Counted from the whole stretch's first letter, positions 52,747-57,604 are shown. The stretch is 60,550 bases of DNA, filler included, from 6 parts of 6 records of this genome joined end to end with filler, not necessarily neighbours in it, one strand, 5' to 3'. Made by a program: numbers and translations. Notes: a model not told the origin generated them from the letters alone.

Positions 52747-54216
52747 CTATTCGTTTGCGATGGCGTTTTCCCGCGCAGTCAATCTGTGACGTAGCACCAG
52801 CATCGCCAGGGCTGGAACCAATGTCAGGCCCGCATTGATGTAGAAGACGGAGGCGCCGGACCGCGCGACGGCCTCCCGGGTGAGCAGTTCTTCCGATCCC
52901 GGTGCAACAAGACCGGTGACAATTGCGATCAGTCCGGTAAGGCCGCCGCCGATGGCAATACCGGCAGAGGAAATGGTCGGCAGGATGCTGGAGACCAGGT
53001 TCTGGTCTTCTCCCTCGGCGGTGTACATCAGCGAACGCATCAGGATCTGGTTGCACAGCCCGTGGCCGGCACCGGCAACCACGGCAGCGAGCGCAAACAA
53101 AGGCAGCGACGCGGTCGTGATCGCAAGAGCAGTGAGGGTCAAGCCGCCGGCGATCAGGAACGGACCGGTCGTCAGATAGATCAGTTCGCGCTGCCGCGAC
53201 GGTGCACGGGAAGAGATGACGGCGAAGATCGACCAGGAGAAGGCGAGCCCGGCGGCAACATAACTTGCCTGCGTCACGCTGAGACCCCAGTAGACCTGGC
53301 CGACCGTCGTCACGAAAACCGCCCGCACCGCAGCGGCAGCGGAAATGAGGAACACGATCCAGGTGCCGAGGCCGATCAGGGTCTGCGCCCGGAAGGCATC
53401 GCGCGGGAAAAGGCGATGCGGGCTTGCGGCGTCAAAGGTCAGCAGCAGCGCTGCGGTTGCCAGACCGGCTGCAATCGTCAGGGCAAGCGGCAGGGGCGCA
53501 TGCAGCTCGCCTATCACGGTCAGGAGAAAGATGCTTGCTGCCAGCAGGGCAAGGCGAACCAGCAAACGGACCGGCAATCTTCTGGCCGTGGGGGCGCTTG
53601 CTGTGGCCGGACGCACTGCTTGCGCAGGCAAGGCCGTGTTCATCAGGACGAACAGCAGCAGCACGAAGGGTATGTTGATCAGGAAGGCGGCGCGCCACGA
53701 CCAGAGTTCGGACAGCAAGCCGGCCGAAACCGGCCCGATACCCGCTGCAACGGCCCAGACCCCTGCCAGCAAGGCAAAGACACGCGGGGCGATGTTGCTG
53801 GGGAAGAGATCCGGGATCAGCGAATAACACAGCGCGATGATCATGCCTTCGCCGAAACCCTGCAGGGCGCGTCCGGCAATCAGCCCTTCCAGAGATGTCG
53901 AGAGACCCGCGAGCACCGATCCGCCCGCAAGCAGGAGCGACGCCAGCAGGAAGGGACTGCGGGCACCGAAACGGACCTTTGCTGCGCCAGTGAGGCAGCC
54001 CGCCAGGATTGCCATCATTTCAAAAGAGGAAAATACCCAGAATGCTCGGTCCTGCCCGCCAAGATCGCGGATGATGTCCGGCAGGACAGCGGTGGTAACA
54101 AAGCCGTTGATGGCGTGGGATCCGACTCCCAGCACCAGCGCCAGTGTGCCGGCCGCGCGTTCCGGAGAAAAGAGTGACGGGCTGACGGGCGGGAGCGCTG
54201 GCGAGCTGATGGACAT
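52747..54216 (-). CDS. MFS transporter (14-TM, drug-efflux-like)
   Basis: GRALQGFG, WSWR.AF.IN.P. Confidence 0.88.
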   Translation of the reverse strand: MSISSPALPPVSPSLFSPERAAGTLALVLGVGSHAINGFVTTAVLPDIIRDLGGQDRAFWVFSSFEMMAILAGCLTGAAKVRFGARSPFLLASLLLAGGSVLAGLSTSLEGLIAGRALQGFGEGMIIALCYSLIPDLFPSNIAPRVFALLAGVWAVAAGIGPVSAGLLSELWSWRAAFLINIPFVLLLFVLMNTALPAQAVRPATASAPTARRLPVRLLVRLALLAASIFLLTVIGELHAPLPLALTIAAGLATAALLLTFDAASPHRLFPRDAFRAQTLIGLGTWIVFLISAAAAVRAVFVTTVGQVYWGLSVTQASYVAAGLAFSWSIFAVISSRAPSRQRELIYLTTGPFLIAGGLTLTALAITTASLPLFALAAVVAGAGHGLCNQILMRSLMYTAEGEDQNLVSSILPTISSAGIAIGGGLTGLIAIVTGLVAPGSEELLTREAVARSGASVFYINAGLTLVPALAMLVLRHRLTARENAIANE

Positions 54217-54226
54217 GACAACCTCG

Positions 54227-54286
54227 ATAAAGAAAGTATTTTCTTTATATATTGAGCTTCGAAAATAAAGAAAGAAATTTATTTTT
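54227..54286. promoter_or_regulatory. Tandem AT-rich palindromic operator sites upstream of MFS gene
   Basis: ATAAAGAAA-GTAT-TTTCTTTAT (54227-54248) and an imperfect copy at 54265-54286. Confidence 0.6.
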
Positions 54287-54389
54287 TTATTTTGGCGCCG
54301 GTATGCGTGAGGGTTTAGCCGTCGAAGGCCCTTGGTTTATTCCGGCCCGGACGATGTAACCAGGGATGTCGAATTCGCGAAGAGATCTA

Positions 54390-54941
54390 TTATGGATGGG
54401 GTTCTGTCAGTGCCAGGAAATGTGCGGGAACGGCATCCGTCAGCCAGACGCCGTTCTCCGTTCTGTAAAACGTGTGCCCCTCCGCCTGCATTGCGCTGGC
54501 CGCGACCTGAAGAATTGCAGGTTTGCCGTGACGGCTTCCGACCTTGTGCGCGGTGTCGCGATCCGGTGACAGATGCACATGGTGCCGGGCCATAGGTTTC
54601 AGGCCTTCGGCCAGAATGGGCGGCAGAAAGCGTGTTGCCGTTCCGTGGAACAGGAACTCCGGAGGCTGTAAAGCTGTGAGGCCCAGTTCAATGTCAATTG
54701 AATGACCCTGACGTGCGCGAATGTGTTTGCGGTCTTCGGAGAACTCGAAGCGTTTCTTGTCGTTGGTCGCGACGATTCTTTCCAGCTGATCCCTTTGGCA
54801 ATCAAGGCCGAGGGCTCTGAAGGCGCCAAGGACATCAGCTACGTCAGCCCAACCGCTGTCTGACAGCATCAAACCGGCGTCTTCCGGTTTGTGTCTTAGC
54901 CAGAAAGACAGGCGTTTCGAGATCTTTGTGTCTGTTTTCAT
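54390..54941 (-). CDS. kptA: RNA 2'-phosphotransferase (Tpt1/KptA)
   Basis: SKRLSFWLRH, DKKRF, IRARQGHS, LFHGT, RHHVHLS, RHG, NGVWL. Confidence 0.96.
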   Translation of the reverse strand: MKTDTKISKRLSFWLRHKPEDAGLMLSDSGWADVADVLGAFRALGLDCQRDQLERIVATNDKKRFEFSEDRKHIRARQGHSIDIELGLTALQPPEFLFHGTATRFLPPILAEGLKPMARHHVHLSPDRDTAHKVGSRHGKPAILQVAASAMQAEGHTFYRTENGVWLTDAVPAHFLALTEPHP

Positions 54942-55066
54942 TGTATTTTTCTTTAAATGTATACTGTTTTCAAATTCTGCGCCCCCTGCGAAAGCGGGCG
55001 AGCGACCCTCAATCGAGGTGGTCTGGTGACAGGACCTGGACAGCCATGGCCTGCAAGGGCCACGCT

Positions 55067-55100
55067 GAAACAGAAACGGCGCAGGTTGCCCCGCGCCGTT
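55067..55100 (-). terminator. Terminator-like hairpin after slipin gene
   Basis: Minus strand AACGGCGCGGG-GCAA-CCTGCGCCGTT then TCTGTTTC. Confidence 0.65.
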
Positions 55101-55105
55101 CTGGC

Positions 55106-56260
55106 TCATGCCGCATTGTCGTCCCGAAGCCGGACGAGGTCGTTCATGAGACCTCCGGTTCCGTTGTGGACCGTGAGCCGGTCGACCTTGCCGGCGATGG
55201 CTTCAAGCGCTTCGAGCTCCTTGAGCCGAAGCATGACCGGGTTTTCGGCCATGACCTTGGCCGTGTTGAGAAGCGAACGGGTTGCGTTCGTTTCTTCACG
55301 GCGCCGGATCACGTTGGCTTCGGCTTCCTTTTCGGCTGCCACCACCTTGATGAGGATCTCGCGCATTTCGCCCGGAAGGATCACGTCCTTGAGGACGATG
55401 TCGGAGACCTCGACACCGATTTCAGCCATGTCGGCCTTGATCTTGGCGGCTGCTTCCGCGTTGACCTCCCCCTTCTTTTCAAGGATCTGGTCGAGCTTGA
55501 GCGCGCCGAGCTGCTTGCGGAACACAAGCTGCAAAGCCCGGTAGAGCGTGTCGGTGAAGTCCTTCACCTCGGTTGCGGCCTTCACCGGGTCAACCACACG
55601 GTAATCCGCGGAGAGGTTGATCCGGATGGTAACGCGGTCGAGGGTCAAGACTTCCTGACCGGTGACGTCGAGAGCCTGACGCTTGAGGTCGATGACCTTC
55701 TGCGTCACGGTTCGGCCTGCCTTCCAGAAGGCATGGACCCCGGCTTCAAGCACCTTGGTGAGCACGCCATCCATGAAGAGAAGGGCGACGCTACCGTCGG
55801 TCACCGGCACGATCACGAACTGCTGCGTCTGACGGGCATCCCCGAGCCGGCGCATGAGCTTCTGCCTGAGGGCCGGGTCGGCAGCCGTGTCGATGACCTC
55901 GAAGGTCCACGGGCCGGCATCCGTCCACAGGACAAGCCGCTCGTCCGGGCCAAGCACGGTGTGGATACGGTTGTCCCGTTCCACAATCGCCACTTCACCC
56001 GGTCCGGTCCGGATAACGGTCAAGTGCTCTTCGGCAACTTGGGGAAGCTTATCGAAGAGCGCCTTCTCGTAGGCCGACCGGAACTGGGGCATTGCCATCG
56101 ACTGGCGCTCGATCACCAGGGTGCCACGGCCATTCTCGAGGCTGTGTTCACCGGGTCCGAGAATACCCTGGAGCTCTCCCTTGCAGATGTGGAGGGCCCG
56201 TTCCGTTTCAGAAATCACTACGCGGGTTCGCCCGCGGATCTTGTCGAGAAAAGTCGTCAT
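55106..56260 (-). CDS. SPFH/band-7 (slipin) family protein
   Basis: Repeated ER.L....G.....L.PG.H units, DLKRQ.L...GQEVLT.D.V..R.N, KDVILPGEM, AN.I.RREET.ATRSLLNTAKVM..NP..LRLKELE. Confidence 0.93.
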   Translation of the reverse strand: MTTFLDKIRGRTRVVISETERALHICKGELQGILGPGEHSLENGRGTLVIERQSMAMPQFRSAYEKALFDKLPQVAEEHLTVIRTGPGEVAIVERDNRIHTVLGPDERLVLWTDAGPWTFEVIDTAADPALRQKLMRRLGDARQTQQFVIVPVTDGSVALLFMDGVLTKVLEAGVHAFWKAGRTVTQKVIDLKRQALDVTGQEVLTLDRVTIRINLSADYRVVDPVKAATEVKDFTDTLYRALQLVFRKQLGALKLDQILEKKGEVNAEAAAKIKADMAEIGVEVSDIVLKDVILPGEMREILIKVVAAEKEAEANVIRRREETNATRSLLNTAKVMAENPVMLRLKELEALEAIAGKVDRLTVHNGTGGLMNDLVRLRDDNAA

Positions 56261-56299
56261 TTCGATAATCCTTCCAATGCGCTAAGGCACGTGGTTGTC

Positions 56300-56647
56300 C
56301 TTTCCGGTGTTGAAGATGGTTGGAGGTTGAGGAAACCGGTCGCTCGTCATGAGGCGTCCGGGGTGAAACGATGAGACCCGAAGAGAGCACGAGGTCTCCC
56401 GGCGGGCCCTTGGCCAGAGGGCGTAGCAGCGGCAATGCGGGTTCCACCCGTTCGAAAACAGGCGGTTCCGGCAAAGCGGCGGCAGAGCCTTTGCCAAAGG
56501 CCGGGCGAAGCGACCTGGCGTCGGCGGTCAGGGCACTTTCACCCGAAGGCAAAAGGGCCAGTCCGCGTTCGCAAGACCTCTCCAGGTCCCCTATGGAACA
56601 GCTTGCATAGCTGCTGGCGTGACAGGCCAGTTCGGCGTTGGAGGCCG
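56300..56647 (-). ncRNA. Putative structured RNA / leader with multiple hairpins, several anticodon-stem-loop-like
   Basis: Dense hairpins including CGGC-CTCCAAC-GCCG, CTGGC-CTGTCAC-GCCAG, CAGC-TATGCAA-GCTG, GCCCT-CTGGCCA-AGGGC and a cUUCGg loop; no credible ORF. Confidence 0.55.
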
Positions 56648-56653
56648 TGTTTT

Positions 56654-56718
56654 TGGAGCGAGAGTTGAACTCGCGACAGTCGGATTAAAGGTCCGATGCT
56701 CTACCACTGAGCTATCCA
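56654..56718 (-). tRNA. tRNA-Lys(UUU)-like element with 4-bp truncated acceptor stem (pseudo-tRNA/tRNA mimic)
   Basis: TGGA TA GCTC-AGTGGTA-GAGC A TCGGA-CCTTTAA-TCCGA CTGTC GCGAG-TTCAACT-CTCGC TCCA; C at position 33. Confidence 0.8.
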
Positions 56719-56793
56719 TGGAGCACATCACAGGAGTCGAACCTGTTGCTTCCGGGGTACACTCCCGGCGTTCAACCGTTAAACTTCATGCGC
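56719..56793 (-). tRNA. Degenerate tRNA-like element (nominal anticodon UGU, non-canonical loop), encoded CCA
   Basis: GCGCATG AA GTTT-AACGGTT-GAAC G CCGGG-AGTGTAC-CCCGG AAGCA ACAGG-TTCGACT-CCTGT GATGTGC T CCA. Confidence 0.8.
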
Positions 56794-56810
56794 GATTGTC
56801 CGATCCTCCA

Positions 56811-56825
56811 GAACAGCATCCGTAC
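56811..56825. promoter_or_regulatory. Candidate alphaproteobacterial LexA (SOS) box
   Basis: GAAC-AGCATCC-GTAC matches GAAC-N7-G(A/T)AC; lies 17 nt upstream of the first tRNA-like element. Confidence 0.35.
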
Positions 56826-57163
56826 ATGAGTGGGCAGGGCCTGATCATGCGGGTGGCGAAAAATGGCCGAACCGTTGATGTCTGTGCCAGTATGGTGACC
56901 GGTGACGAGTTGATACTTCGAGAGCGGGTGCCAATGCAACCGGCAATTTCAAGAGAAGCGATGTTTGTTGCTAATGTGATACAGTATGTTGTATTTTTGT
57001 CACTTTTGCCCAGAGTGCCGGCTGTCGCCCTGGGCGGGGACTTTGGTTGGTTTGAAGCGGTTTCGGTGAAGAACCGTAAACCGCAATCTCCTCGACCTCT
57101 TGCGCCGGGAAGACGGCGAAGGCAAACTCCCGGCCAGATTGTGTTTCCGCCCTGCGAGGACCT

Positions 57164-57604
57164 ATGGCCAACAAACAGTCCCGGTTTCTGATCGATACCT
57201 ATTTTGCCGCCTTCAATGCAGGCGATACCAAGAAAATGGAAAGCCTGGTTGCCGACGACCTGATCCATGATGTCAACCAGGGCGAACGCCGTGTCGGCAA
57301 GGACAAGTTCTGGTCCTTCAACGTTCACATGACGCGCTGCTACAAGGAACGCCTCAGCGACATCGTGCTGTTCGTCAGTGAAGACGGGACACGGGCTGCT
57401 GCCGAGTTCATCGTCCATGGCAGCTATATCGGCACCGACAGCGGATTGCCGCCCGCGAACGGCCAGACCTACAAGCTGCCGGCGGGCAGCTTTTTCGAGA
57501 TCCGCAATGGTCAAATCGCCCGCATCACCACCTATTACAACCTTCAGGACTGGATCGACCAGGTGACGGAAGGTGCGGGTGAAAAAGTGCCGGAAGAGGC
57601 CTGA
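57164..57604 (+). CDS. SnoaL-like/ketosteroid isomerase-related protein
   Basis: YFAAFNAGD, HDVNQG, RAAAEF, RITTYYNL. Confidence 0.9.
   Translation: MANKQSRFLIDTYFAAFNAGDTKKMESLVADDLIHDVNQGERRVGKDKFWSFNVHMTRCYKERLSDIVLFVSEDGTRAAAEFIVHGSYIGTDSGLPPANGQTYKLPAGSFFEIRNGQIARITTYYNLQDWIDQVTEGAGEKVPEEA

Follow-up and report, generated by a model that had tools for sequence, protein, structure and literature searches.

Why does a marine Roseibium bacterium carry kptA, the gene for an RNA 2'-phosphotransferase, behind a gene for an SPFH/Band-7 protein that is itself preceded by two tRNA-like elements, and do these parts work together? In the window, i.e., the whole stretch of 60,550 nucleotides analyzed here (filler included), tRNA-like A, tRNA-like B, a folded RNA of about 390 nt, the SPFH gene, and kptA follow one another on the minus strand (Table 1). 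A preliminary description had placed these parts here on one strand and read them as an RNA-repair or anti-ribotoxin unit; their identity and position were borne out by Rfam (and, for tRNA-like B, ARAGORN) and by Pfam for both proteins, and the unrelated MFS and SnoaL genes said to bound them were both found. The arrangement is far beyond chance, as it is conserved in relatives and contains covarying structure. The nearest genome, G001, has 20% of sampled words in common with the window. A conserved block 5' of tRNA-like A may be a promoter, or the RNA may extend 5' into it; the promoter scan called no sigma-70-like site here on the minus strand.

Table 1. Features of the locus, with positions counted from the first nucleotide of the window
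Feature	Position	Strand	Evidence and remarks
SnoaL gene (flank)	57164..57604	+	
Whole arrangement, tRNA-like A to kptA	56793..54390	-	All parts on the minus strand
Conserved block 5' of tRNA-like A	56794..56900	-	Aligns across Roseibium loci
tRNA-like A	56793..56722	-	Rfam RF00005 (tRNA), 38.7 bits versus gathering score of 29
tRNA-like B	56721..56650	-	Rfam RF00005, 54.9 bits versus gathering score of 29; ARAGORN call Lys-UUU
Non-coding stretch, 389 nt	56649..56261	-	Without convincing ORF
Small hairpin CGGC-CUCCAAC-GCCG	56633..56647	-	T-arm-like; from alignments
Hairpin H2	56614..56630	-	5-bp stem, 7-nt loop CUGUCAC, anticodon-loop-like (Y-U-NNN-R)
Hairpin H3	56598..56614	-	5-bp stem, 7-nt loop UAUGCAA
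Closed multi-helix domain, ~220 nt	56373..56590	-	RNAalifold and pair counts on alignment A2
SD-like GGAAAGGA, then two-codon mini-ORF	56282..56305	-	Mini-ORF GUG CCU UAG at 56290..56282
SPFH/Band-7 protein, 384 aa	55106..56260	-	Pfam PF01145, E 3.8e-28, residues 156-323
Intrinsic-terminator-like hairpin	55067..55101	-	ACGGCGC...GCGCCGU, then UUUCUGUUUC; immediately 3' of SPFH stop
Unconserved spacer	54942..55066	-	Promoter-like site and A-rich stretch before kptA ATG
kptA (Tpt1 RNA 2'-phosphotransferase), 183 aa	54390..54941	-	ADP-ribosyltransferase fold; Pfam PF01885, E 1.4e-50
MFS gene (flank)	54216..52747	-	

tRNA-like elements and structured RNA upstream of the SPFH gene

tRNA-like A forms a full cloverleaf with six of seven acceptor pairs and the anticodon loop AGUGUAC, which has G at position 33, and a discriminator U plus CCA come next (56721..56719, minus strand); the element received no ARAGORN call. 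tRNA-like B abuts it with zero spacer. It keeps intact D, anticodon, and T arms, and its anticodon loop is CCUUUAA, with C at position 33; of the acceptor stem, some 4 bp (UGGA/UCCA) are left, pairs one to three being non-canonical, and in relatives the Rfam match of tRNA-like B spans only model positions 4 to 67 or 5 to 66. A and B were considered as working tRNAs and rejected: the Rfam threshold is passed, but both lack U33, B has no 7-bp acceptor stem, and the anticodon is not conserved. Specifically, the anticodon triplets of both elements vary among close relatives, with some loops of odd length, whereas conservation is seen in the D loop, the T loop, and the CCA junction, the last lying immediately 5' of the GGAUAGCUCA of tRNA-like B in 34 of 84 upstream sequences. 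Relatives carry the pair 5' of their SPFH homologues at 16 of 17 loci, 14 of which give two matches, and from alpha- and gammaproteobacteria to Bryobacteraceae and other groups its placement and order stay the same. Among 71 wider loci with enough upstream DNA, tRNA-like elements are present in 66 (two matches in 38 and one in 28) and absent from 5, and in most loci some 320 to 480 nt separate tRNA-like B from the SPFH start.

The sequence between tRNA-like B and the SPFH gene, initially described as about 350 nt of hairpins, proved to be a conserved, covarying structure among SPFH loci, as judged from two independent sequence sets and an RNA covariance model (R1). At the site of the small hairpin, some Roseibium species show GGGUUCGACUCCC. 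The helix of H2 (43-46/54-57 of alignment A2) covaries, that of H3 (58-62/70-74) is 100% paired, and the H3 stem of Mesorhizobium has a different sequence (ACACC/GGUGU). The likeness of these hairpins to anticodon loops, claimed beforehand, is statistically real: of 141 hairpins with seven-nt loops 3' of the tRNA mimics in 68 loci, 80 fit the pattern Y-U-NNN-R, compared with 2.5 (maximum, 11) in shuffles. Several of the loops equal natural anticodon-loop sequences, e.g., the Asp-like CUGUCAC, which is conserved in the gammaproteobacterial clade.

The ~220-nt domain is closed by a 14-bp long-range helix (56590..56577 with 56386..56373) with further helices nested inside, and its inner long hairpin (56518..56390) displays the conserved apical loop GUUUUCGAAC at 56464..56445. 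In alignment A2, 94.8% of the cells are paired, versus 39 to 48% with slid partners, and compensatory changes occur in 27 of 70 pairs, versus 5 to 13 with slid partners; none of 500 shuffles scored as high. An independent set of 16 non-Roseibium alphaproteobacterial loci contained compensatory changes in 28 of 32 pairs and the same closing helix, with 11 of its 14 pairs covarying, and the same RNA architecture was observed in Mesorhizobium and in RtcB-bearing gammaproteobacterial loci. A permissive cmscan search (E up to 10) over positions 54000..57400 assigned no known Rfam 15 family to 56649..56261 and returned only chance-level matches there, such as H19_3 (17.5 bits, E 4.1). The comparative evidence supports the view that the tRNA mimics, the two anticodon-loop-like hairpins, and the ~220-nt domain would form one RNA of about 540 nt.

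The SPFH gene has the SD sequence GGAAGGA (56275..56269), and the last 50 nt 5' of its ATG are nearly invariant within Roseibium. The mini-ORF sits in the hairpin GUGC-CUUA-GCGC (56290..56279; helix 417-420/425-428 of alignment A2). An SD sequence followed by a start, one codon, and a stop, located 25 to 47 nt 5' of the SPFH start, is present in 42 of 87 loci, compared with 1.9 ± 1.3 (maximum, 8) in shuffles. Its start, sense, and stop codons differ among lineages, and none was found in the gammaproteobacterial and Bryobacteraceae loci, although the RNA is kept there.

The SPFH protein and the segment before kptA

In its AF2 model (pLDDT 85.4), the putatively soluble SPFH protein starts with N-terminal β-domains, followed by a core like that of stomatin and, toward the C-terminus, long helices; reading the sequence by eye revealed no hydrophobic membrane anchor. 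The protein matches the stomatin of PDB entry 3bk6 (E 5e-26), and the stomatin fold match extends across model residues 124 to 363 (Z 15.4; Foldseek, VIA-align). Major vault protein (MVP) is the sole fold match reaching the N-terminal domains, with model residues 13 or 14 to 337-367 corresponding to MVP residues 323 to 720, which take in the repeat domains, SPFH-like shoulder, and cap helix (Z 10.6 to 11.3; 12 to 15% identity; rmsd of 7 to 8 Å). According to the model, the protein thus resembles, at the fold level only, the C-terminal half of MVP, i.e., its β-domains, SPFH shoulder, and long helices. The eukaryotic vault consists of the MVP cage, vault RNA, TEP1 with its TROVE domain, and PARP4. 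As in the vault, a (predicted) cage-type protein is combined in Roseibium with a small structured RNA plus an enzyme of the ADP-ribosyltransferase fold; however, the likeness is confined to the fold, and the Roseibium SPFH protein is no member of the MVP family.

The SPFH stop is separated from kptA by 164 nt. What had been taken for a second hairpin cluster in this gap is a conserved terminator-like hairpin plus an unconserved spacer. The former, a GC hairpin with a U tract and a stem of variable sequence, is present in 10 of 10 Roseibium loci; in the window (55067..55101), a simple terminator scan did not call it. The spacer varies from 63 to 287 nt across Roseibium loci and is not alignable; in the window, the DNA 5' of kptA is AT-rich, with the promoter-like site TTGAAA-17-AAAAAT at 54973..54945 (promoter scan, five sites versus 0.6 expected). 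Because a conserved terminator-like hairpin and a promoter-like site precede kptA, a single operon of RNA, SPFH gene, and kptA is doubtful; of the co-oriented unit proposed at the outset, the common orientation on the minus strand stands, but the single transcript is in question. No terminator-like element was found between the RNA and the SPFH start. Public RNA runs contained genome-like contigs only.

KptA and the distribution of the module

KptA aligns without gaps and over its full length to 7kw8_A (E 2.3e-51), and with 238.8 bits it falls 0.2 bits short of the cut-off of NCBIfam NF002014 (239). R16, H17, R64, and R119 are all present and invariant in 10 Roseibium copies; the four Arg-His-Arg-Arg residues are described as essential in Runella slithyformis Tpt1 (PMC6097658). 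With a full-length match to the Tpt1/KptA enzymes and all essential residues kept, Roseibium KptA is apparently active. Reports on Tpt1/KptA describe a terminal phosphomonoesterase activity (PMC6573784) and ADP-ribosylation of 5'-phosphates (PMC12678800), and clearing of 2'-phosphates left by metal-independent RNases has been suggested as a role (PMC7824862). The gene context sets the Roseibium enzyme apart: kptA adjoins a tRNA-mimic RNA and an SPFH gene, whereas the bacterial contexts described in section 2.3.1 of PMC8120803 are varied and include, for example, Thg1 and NAD/ADP-ribose operons.

Model R1 gave a single match (E 1e-15 to 1e-21) in each of 23 Roseibium genomes out of 61; of the 37 scored for RNA and SPFH gene alike, it was present in exactly the 12 SPFH-positive ones and in none of the other 25. 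KptA is encoded in 17 of the 23 RNA-positive genomes (6 are without it) versus 0 of the 38 RNA-negative ones, counts that could reflect one inherited block with few losses, since genomes of one genus are not independent. In 16 of the 17 genomes having both, KptA lies 1.4 to 2.0 kb downstream on the same strand, and it is directly downstream in 8 of 11 complete Roseibium loci. The SPFH-KptA pair is kept while its outer neighbors change (MFS, KAP NTPase, PAAR-M91, TPR), and the identities of the two proteins drop in parallel across loci, down to 57%, which argues that the adjacency is old and retained.

Among the repair genes expected beside SPFH homologues, RtcB adjoins an SPFH homologue (38 to 45% identity) in 12 of 80 related loci, and KptA is found in 5 of the 80, all five of them Roseibium; the 72 non-Roseibium loci are without KptA. 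To judge from the loci examined, KptA is an accessory in one genus and stands outside the core module. In 9 of 72 loci, the first sizeable ORF to follow is RtcB; most alphaproteobacterial loci have no RNA-repair enzyme adjoining the module, which counts against the mechanism proposed below, and nuclease or toxin genes show no consistent linkage to the module. RtcB was not found within ±3.5 kb in 16 relatives' loci, nor were RtcB, TROVE, RtcA, or a PF09414 ligase in G001, nor an RtcB or TROVE seed match in the 60-kb window. The proposal of a variant free of ligase and Ro60 therefore holds for the nearest genome, but RtcB is encoded elsewhere in 8 of the 12 SPFH-positive Roseibium genomes, so "ligase-less" is not a general property.

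As summarized in a citing preprint (bioRxiv 10.1101/312249), Burroughs and Aravind (2016) predicted a tRNA associated with band 7 (b7a-tRNA) next to Band-7 and RtcB; this account, together with RtcB in the 12 loci above, shows that the link proposed earlier between Band-7, RtcB, and tRNA-like RNAs is real. By its sequence features, the Roseibium locus is of this general kind, an anchor-less Band-7 protein preceded by a tRNA-like non-coding RNA on the same strand, and its particularity is KptA: in contrast to the module as summarized there, the locus and G001 have no RtcB, RtcA, or TROVE, and KptA is the linked enzyme. Set against that summary, Roseibium has two tRNA mimics as the 5' part of a ~540-nt RNA. 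Another relative in context is the rtc locus of Pseudomonas aeruginosa, where an SPFH gene (PaFlo8, PA14_60630) is described as embedded with RtcR, RtcB, and RtcA (PMC13086221), the same protein-family context as in the gammaproteobacterial loci retrieved here; the Roseibium locus likewise has an SPFH gene, but KptA instead of RtcR, RtcB, and RtcA nearby. In rsr-yrlBA-rtcBA operons, Ro60 (Rsr) is encoded with Y RNAs (YrlA) (PMC4201824; PMC7790460), i.e., a non-coding RNA with a tRNA-like domain beside a scaffold protein in an RNA-repair context. In Roseibium, however, the scaffold role falls to an SPFH protein, and the RNA is far larger. The cmscan match of YrlA over the A/B junction is weak (28.4 bits, far under the gathering score of 69), and with TROVE found neither in G001 nor in the window, identity with a Y RNA was rejected.

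Proposed mechanism and rival explanations

The locus is probably the Roseibium version of the Band-7 and tRNA-like-RNA module that has been placed among RNA-repair systems, with KptA as its linked enzyme. In the mechanism we propose, the RNA and the SPFH message would be one transcript ending at the terminator 3' of the SPFH gene, and the SPFH protein may assemble into a ring or cage holding the RNA. Enzymes that act on tRNA (RtcB in gammaproteobacteria and, in Roseibium, KptA as the sole linked enzyme) could then take hold of the CCA end and of the conserved elbows, formed by the D and T loops. Using NAD+, KptA might strip 2'-phosphates from broken or rejoined RNA or cap 5'-phosphate ends; its gene is probably expressed via terminator read-through or its own promoter.

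The RNA might instead act mainly in cis, as a leader or sensor of the SPFH mRNA and not as a partner or decoy in trans, a possible though rather unlikely reading that can coexist with the mechanism above. Reshaping of the SD region, brought about by cutting, modification, or binding of the tRNA- or anticodon-like modules or by the mini-ORF being translated, would set SPFH translation. The uninterrupted passage from RNA to SPFH start, the distance held between tRNA-like B and that start, the near-invariant 50 nt before the ATG, and the frequency of the mini-ORF, with codons varying between lineages and a position within a conserved hairpin beside GGAAGGA, are all consistent with a leader. However, the mini-ORF was not found in the gammaproteobacterial and Bryobacteraceae loci that keep the RNA, two tRNA shapes and an encoded CCA in 540 nt exceed what a translational switch needs, and the competing pairing of GAAAGG/GGAAGG with CCUU is a candidate read by eye. 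Less probable still is the decoy function put forward initially, in which tRNA mimics and anticodon-like hairpins bait anticodon nucleases (ribotoxins, or phage-triggered enzymes) and KptA heals the cut ends. Each RNA presents four anticodon-like loops with the natural Y-U-NNN-R pattern, several of them matching natural loops; RtcB accompanies the module in other lineages, and the suggested clearing of 2'-phosphates (PMC7824862) would suit KptA. The hairpins are indeed anticodon-like, but the "anticodons" of A, B, H2, and H3 vary freely among close species. A decoy should keep its target loop, and this variation therefore speaks against the baiting of any single, specific anticodon nuclease; conservation lies instead in the D loop, the T loop, and the CCA junction. 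Moreover, A and B of the window lack U33, and the module has no consistently linked nuclease or toxin gene.

KptA could also be functionally unrelated to the module, having entered an ancestral Roseibium island once, with its own transcription, and having been inherited along with the block. The terminator that 10 of 10 loci show behind the SPFH gene, the unalignable spacer of variable length, the promoter-like site and AT-rich DNA before kptA, its absence from the 72 non-Roseibium loci and 6 of the 23 RNA-positive Roseibium genomes, and the varied bacterial contexts noted in PMC8120803 would agree with such a history. We nevertheless think it somewhat doubtful: none of the 38 RNA-less Roseibium genomes has KptA, the gene stays directly downstream and co-oriented while the genes beyond differ between species, and its divergence parallels that of SPFH to 57% identity. 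That the tRNA-like elements are decayed tRNA genes or integration-site scars, and the hairpins chance products of GC-rich intergenic DNA, is barely credible. Only a single element gets an ARAGORN call, and A and B alike depart from the canonical tRNA form, but this reading is contradicted by the unchanged placement and order in alpha- and gammaproteobacteria, Bryobacteraceae, and further groups, by the strong covariation, and by the single copy per genome, always with the SPFH gene.

The preferred reading, a Band-7 and tRNA-like-RNA module with KptA as linked enzyme, can be extended to a bacterial vault-like ribonucleoprotein without RNA ligase, which we regard as quite improbable. Here an MVP-like SPFH cage would hold the 540-nt RNA, whose pair of tRNA shapes and pair of anticodon-like hairpins would report tRNA attack or shortage; bait damage or stalling on the mini-ORF would unmask the SPFH ribosome-binding site, and the cage would recruit KptA, which, with NAD+, would cap the 5'-phosphate ends of broken tRNAs or rid them of 2'-phosphates. 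If true, bacterial Tpt1 would have its first physiological role here. With KptA tied to the module, the locus offers a natural handle on the role of orphan bacterial KptA.

Layout of the locus and the two tRNA-like elements

The observation behind the preliminary description is real, and its list of parts was correct: the Rfam, ARAGORN, and Pfam matches all place the two tRNA-like RNAs, the SPFH/Band-7 gene, and kptA on the minus strand where it had put them. The matches of tRNA-like elements A and B to the Rfam tRNA model abut with no spacer between them, and ARAGORN calls B alone, as tRNA-Lys(UUU). Element A has six of seven acceptor pairs, G33 instead of U33, and a discriminator followed by CCA, which runs directly into B. 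Element B carries C33, and its first three acceptor pairs are noncanonical, leaving approximately 4 bp; the Rfam match to its counterparts in relatives usually spans only model positions 4 to 67 or 5 to 66. Upstream sequences from several orders share a CCA junction immediately 5′ of B's GGAUAGCUCA (34 of 84). Even close species differ freely in the "anticodons" of A and B, and some of the loops are of odd length; the D and T loops are conserved. Neither element resembles a decoding tRNA. A reading as decayed tRNA genes was rejected, as was membership in the YrlA/Y RNA family, the cmscan match at the A/B junction reaching 28.4 bits with a gathering score of 69.

The approximately 100 nt upstream of element A (window positions 56794 to 56900, minus strand) are conserved in Roseibium, and a short motif (GUACGG or GUAUGC) located some 45 nt upstream of A is shared with Mesorhizobium and gammaproteobacterial loci. 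No promoter consensus was recognized in these 100 nt, and a sigma-70 scan of the minus strand upstream of A returned no site; the sigma-54 pattern, with 272 matches in the window versus 304 expected, was uninformative.

Features of the locus and of neighboring genes in related loci (positions in the window unless a locus is named)
Feature	Position	Strand	Size or support
tRNA-like A	56793..56722	-	Rfam tRNA model 38.7 bits (gathering score 29)
tRNA-like B	56721..56650	-	Rfam tRNA model 54.9 bits (gathering score 29)
Spacer without convincing gene	between tRNA-like B and SPFH gene	-	389 nt
Small T-arm-like hairpin	56647..56633	-	alignment of Roseibium spacers
H2 hairpin	56630..56614	-	4-5-bp stem, 7-nt loop; alignment of Roseibium spacers
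H3 hairpin	56614..56598	-	4-5-bp stem, 7-nt loop; alignment of Roseibium spacers
Long-range helix closing a domain of nested helices	56590..56577 with 56386..56373	-	14 bp
Inner long hairpin	56518..56390	-	apical loop GUUUUCGAAC
Mini-ORF with SD	56282-56305	-	
SPFH/Band_7 protein	56260..55106	-	384 aa; Pfam E 3.8e-28
Gap	between SPFH gene and kptA	-	164 nt
Tpt1/KptA	54941..54390	-	183 aa; Pfam E 1.4e-50
Flanks: MFS transporter; SnoaL-like gene			SnoaL-like gene divergently oriented
KAP NTPase gene, locus L020	10966-13554		
KAP NTPase gene, locus L021	5594-8500		
KAP NTPase gene, locus L026	11270-13861		

A conserved structured RNA linked to the SPFH gene

The 390 nt that follow tRNA-like B are one conserved structured RNA. 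Thirteen Roseibium spacers were aligned, and RNAalifold was applied to segments because the global fold of the 727-column alignment gave an implausible long-range structure. Compensatory changes occur in 27 of the 72 pairs that it predicted. In the 70 pairs counted, 94.8% of cells pair, versus 39 to 48% when the 3′ partners were slid; double changes occur in 27 pairs versus 5 to 13 after sliding, and none of 500 shuffles was as high. The 50 nt before the SPFH ATG are almost invariant. A second, independent set of 16 non-Roseibium alphaproteobacterial spacers has the same closing helix, 11 of whose 14 pairs covary; double changes occur in 28 of the 32 pairs overall and 91.1% of cells pair (30 to 54% slid), again with 0 of 500 shuffles as high. 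By inspection of script alignments, the order of parts is the same in Mesorhizobium and in RtcB-carrying gammaproteobacterial loci. A permissive search found no Rfam family for the spacer stretch. The RNA of the module ranks among the larger conserved bacterial RNAs that lack one. A coding function of the spacer was rejected, the minus-strand open reading frames (ORFs) of 71 and 114 aa overlapping the conserved helices. Some Roseibium species (loci L036, L038, L039, L025, and L027) have an extra insertion between B and H2, consisting of a small hairpin and a perfect T-arm, GGGUUCGACUCCC; at this site the window has only a degenerate hairpin (56647..56633).

tRNA-like matches precede the SPFH homologue at 16 of 17 relatives' loci: 14 have two, 2 have one, and the seventeenth has none. 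When genome contigs were scanned, at least 600 stretches matched, and at least 596 of them were confirmed. The best 80 of these at least 596 loci come from Roseibium, Mesorhizobium, Sphingopyxis, Rhodobacteraceae, several gammaproteobacteria, Bryobacteraceae, and one Deinococcales metagenome-assembled genome. In the 71 of them with at least 560 nt of upstream DNA, Roseibium-derived profiles detected two tRNA-like matches in 38 loci, one in 28, and none in 5, at positions -700 to -200 on the SPFH strand; elsewhere in the loci there were almost none. A covariance model built from the inner hairpin (R1) matches 23 of 61 Roseibium genomes, each once (E values of 1e-15 to 1e-21), and in the 37 genomes scored for both, its matches coincide exactly with the 12 SPFH-positive ones (0 of 25 others). 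The module of Band-7 gene and tRNA-like RNA is thus widespread, with at least 596 relatives from one scan; our literature search found no experimental test of it. A more distant SPFH homologue (locus L032, G049:C137, 428-2008; 35% identity) with an N-terminal open-frame extension of about 140 codons has no tRNA-like match upstream; the same genome has KptA on another contig.

The preliminary description had read the whole 350 nt as an "anticodon-loop array"; this likeness holds for two hairpins, H2 and H3, and not for the entire stretch. In the 78 nt after the last tRNA-like match, one or more 7-nt-loop hairpins occur at 64 of 68 loci. The consensus Y-U-NNN-R fits 80 of the 141 such hairpins, versus 2.5 in shuffles (maximum of 11); the second loop position is U in 101, and a few are T-loop-like (UUCGA...). 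The anticodon-like loops vary freely, which is evidence against a decoy for one particular nuclease; shape recognition or a general sensor fits this variation better. The RtcB-carrying gammaproteobacterial clade (L090, L095, L098, L102, L109, and others) keeps a C/UUGUCAC or CUGUUAC loop in its first hairpin, approximately 5 to 25 nt after B, and the H2 loop of the window, CUGUCAC, is this same loop. U-G-U in such a loop is recognized by queuosine insertion and by colicin E5.

The pattern sought upstream of the SPFH start was an SD-like GGA or GGAG and, 4 to 12 nt later, an ATG or GTG start codon, a single sense codon, and a stop codon. Such a two-codon mini-ORF, its start codon 25 to 47 nt before the SPFH start, is present in 42 of 87 loci, a count inflated by related sequences, versus 1.9 ± 1.3 of 87 in shuffles (maximum of 8); all 42 belong to the alphaproteobacterial clade. 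The Roseibium version, GTG CCT TAG, lies inside a conserved hairpin, GUGC-CUUA-GCGC, adjoining the SD GGAAGGA; Mesorhizobium has ATG ACG/ACT/AGT TGA, and other genera have further combinations. Across lineages, the start is ATG or GTG, the sense codon Pro, Thr, Ser, or Arg, and the stop TAG or TGA, i.e., the mini-ORF is kept while all three codons change.

KptA, RtcB, and the extent of the unit

KptA exceeds the Pfam cutoff in 17 of the 61 Roseibium genomes, all R1 positive (17 of 23 R1-positive versus 0 of 38 R1-negative genomes); one R1-negative genome has a subthreshold fragment of 34 residues. In 16 of the 17, kptA lies 1.4 to 2.0 kb downstream of the R1 match on the same strand; the seventeenth has a contig break in between. 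It is directly downstream of the SPFH gene in 8 of 11 complete loci of the genus and in 5 of the best 80 loci, all Roseibium, and the genes beyond it vary by species (MFS, KAP NTPase, PAAR-M91, and TPR). Since KptA identity falls from 96% to 57% in step with SPFH identity (99% to 78%), the sequences fit an old adjacency kept with losses. A KAP-family P-loop NTPase gene (approximately 860 to 970 aa) directly adjoins the module in three Roseibium species, and PAAR and Peptidase_M91 effector genes lie within a few kilobases at four loci (L022, L023, L024, and L025).

KptA aligns without gaps (E value of 2.3e-51) to 7kw8_A, which we take to be the Runella enzyme. It has R16, H17, R64, and R119, all invariant in 10 Roseibium copies. 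Alanine mutants of these four residues are described as abolishing the function of Runella Tpt1 (PMC6097658). Given the gapless alignment and the four essential residues, Roseibium KptA looks active.

In 10 of 10 Roseibium loci, a GC-rich hairpin, ACGGCGCGGG...CCCGCGCCGU, and then a U-rich tract come immediately after the SPFH stop, whereas the rest of the SPFH-kptA gap (63 to 287 nt) is not alignable; the supposed second hairpin cluster is therefore a predicted terminator plus spacer. In the window, a promoter-like TTGAAA-17-AAAAAT lies in AT-rich DNA 4 nt before the kptA ATG, so kptA would depend either on read-through or on independent expression. The preliminary description had counted separate transcription of kptA against its single unit, and by this measure the terminator and the promoter-like site weaken the proposal; the co-occurrence of KptA stands. 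Eighteen sequencing runs labeled RNA contain at least half of the sampled words, and four were examined. Runs X2 and X7 cover the stretch as contigs of 72 and 4.6 kb, but their assembly is DNA-like (longest contigs of 165 and 98 kb, respectively), so they are no evidence of transcription; the end of the X7 contig, at 56846, lies 53 nt upstream of tRNA-like A, and contigs cannot show transcript starts. Run X6 had nothing over the stretch and X1 only fragments from other organisms.

A preprint citing Burroughs and Aravind (2016) states that RtcB in certain bacteria adjoins a Band-7 protein and a predicted "band 7-associated tRNA" (bioRxiv 10.1101/312249), the only source found for "b7a-tRNA" in the literature; the Pseudomonas aeruginosa rtc locus is described as containing an SPFH gene, PaFlo8 (PMC13086221). 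That statement, together with RtcB seed matches at 12 of the best 80 loci, all in the group of 38 to 45% identity (gammaproteobacteria and similar taxa), bears out the link between Band-7 genes, RtcB, and tRNA-like RNAs invoked in the preliminary description. Tallied over 72 loci, the next sizeable ORF encodes RtcB in 9; in alphaproteobacteria, most loci lack any RNA enzyme adjoining the module. A beta-ketoacyl synthase is the next sizeable ORF downstream in 11 of the 72 loci tallied (Mesorhizobium L041-L048, L052, L055, L062, L067, and L071), probably plain synteny within that genus.

The proposal of a ligase-less variant agrees with the window, with its nearest genome, and with the 4 of 12 SPFH-positive Roseibium genomes that lack RtcB; against it, the other eight carry RtcB on different contigs or more than 600 kb away. 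Specifically, seeds for RtcB and TROVE have no match in the 60-kb window, and the nearest genome (G001), a proxy for that of the window (SPFH 99% identical; 99% complete), yielded nothing in searches for RtcB, TROVE, RtcA, and the PF09414 RNA-ligase family; its sole KptA is the copy beside the SPFH gene, and a 2H phosphoesterase (PF13563) is present far away. RtcB, RtcA, and TROVE had no match among 224 ORFs of at least 130 aa within ±3.5 kb at 16 loci, where all such ORFs near the SPFH gene were scanned because longest-ORF/GC3 gene calling is unreliable in GC-rich loci; TROVE likewise had no tblastn match in the best 80 loci, a weak test with two seeds only. RtcB, unlinked to the module, is present in 8 of 12 SPFH-positive versus 5 of 25 SPFH-negative genomes (G001-G037), only a hint, as the genomes are related. 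The module family is a known computational prediction, the 2016 work being known here through the citing preprint; compared with the module as that preprint gives it, the Roseibium form is new in its tie to KptA, the lack of RtcB nearby, and the predicted terminator before kptA.

The SPFH protein and a possible role of the module

The AlphaFold2 model of the SPFH protein, built with 75 homologues (pLDDT of 85.4), features beta domains at residues ~11 to 54, 80 to 124, and 148 to 179, followed by the SPFH core and long helices (residues 297 to 358). The best fold matches are stomatin and HflK/C (Foldseek, 4.5e-14; VIA Z of 15.4 for model residues 124 to 363). Only one solved structure among the matches, major vault protein (MVP), extends over the N-terminal domains as well: its residues 323 to 688-720 align with model residues 13/14 to 337-367 (Z of 10.6 to 11.3; rmsd of 7 to 8 Å). 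No hydrophobic anchor was seen when the sequence was read by eye. A complex prediction for SPFH and KptA scored 0.00, which counts neither for nor against binding.

Most likely, the RNA and the SPFH gene would form one transcript, and the SPFH protein would assemble into a ring or cage carrying the RNA, whose conserved tRNA elbows and CCA end would serve as handles for tRNA-directed enzymes; in Roseibium, we infer, the linked enzyme would be KptA. SPFH translation may, in addition, be under the control of the leader and its mini-ORF. The vault-like build and the conserved mini-ORF offer testable ideas on how such scaffolds and leaders work.

KptA/Tpt1 is reported to remove internal 2′-phosphates (PMC6097658) and to ADP-ribosylate 5′-phosphate ends (PMC12678800, PMC8120803), and some family members to remove terminal 2′/3′-phosphates (PMC6573784). 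Bacteria are described as lacking the yeast-type tRNA ligase that would make the Tpt1/KptA substrate, and the role of the bacterial enzyme is called an open question (PMC6097658, PMC6573784, PMC6333775, PMC8120803). Across the genus, KptA is found only with the tRNA-mimic RNA and the SPFH gene, which supplies concrete candidate substrates and partners that can be tested in a culturable marine genus; the KptA-tied Roseibium form thus offers a concrete route toward learning what Tpt1 does in bacteria.
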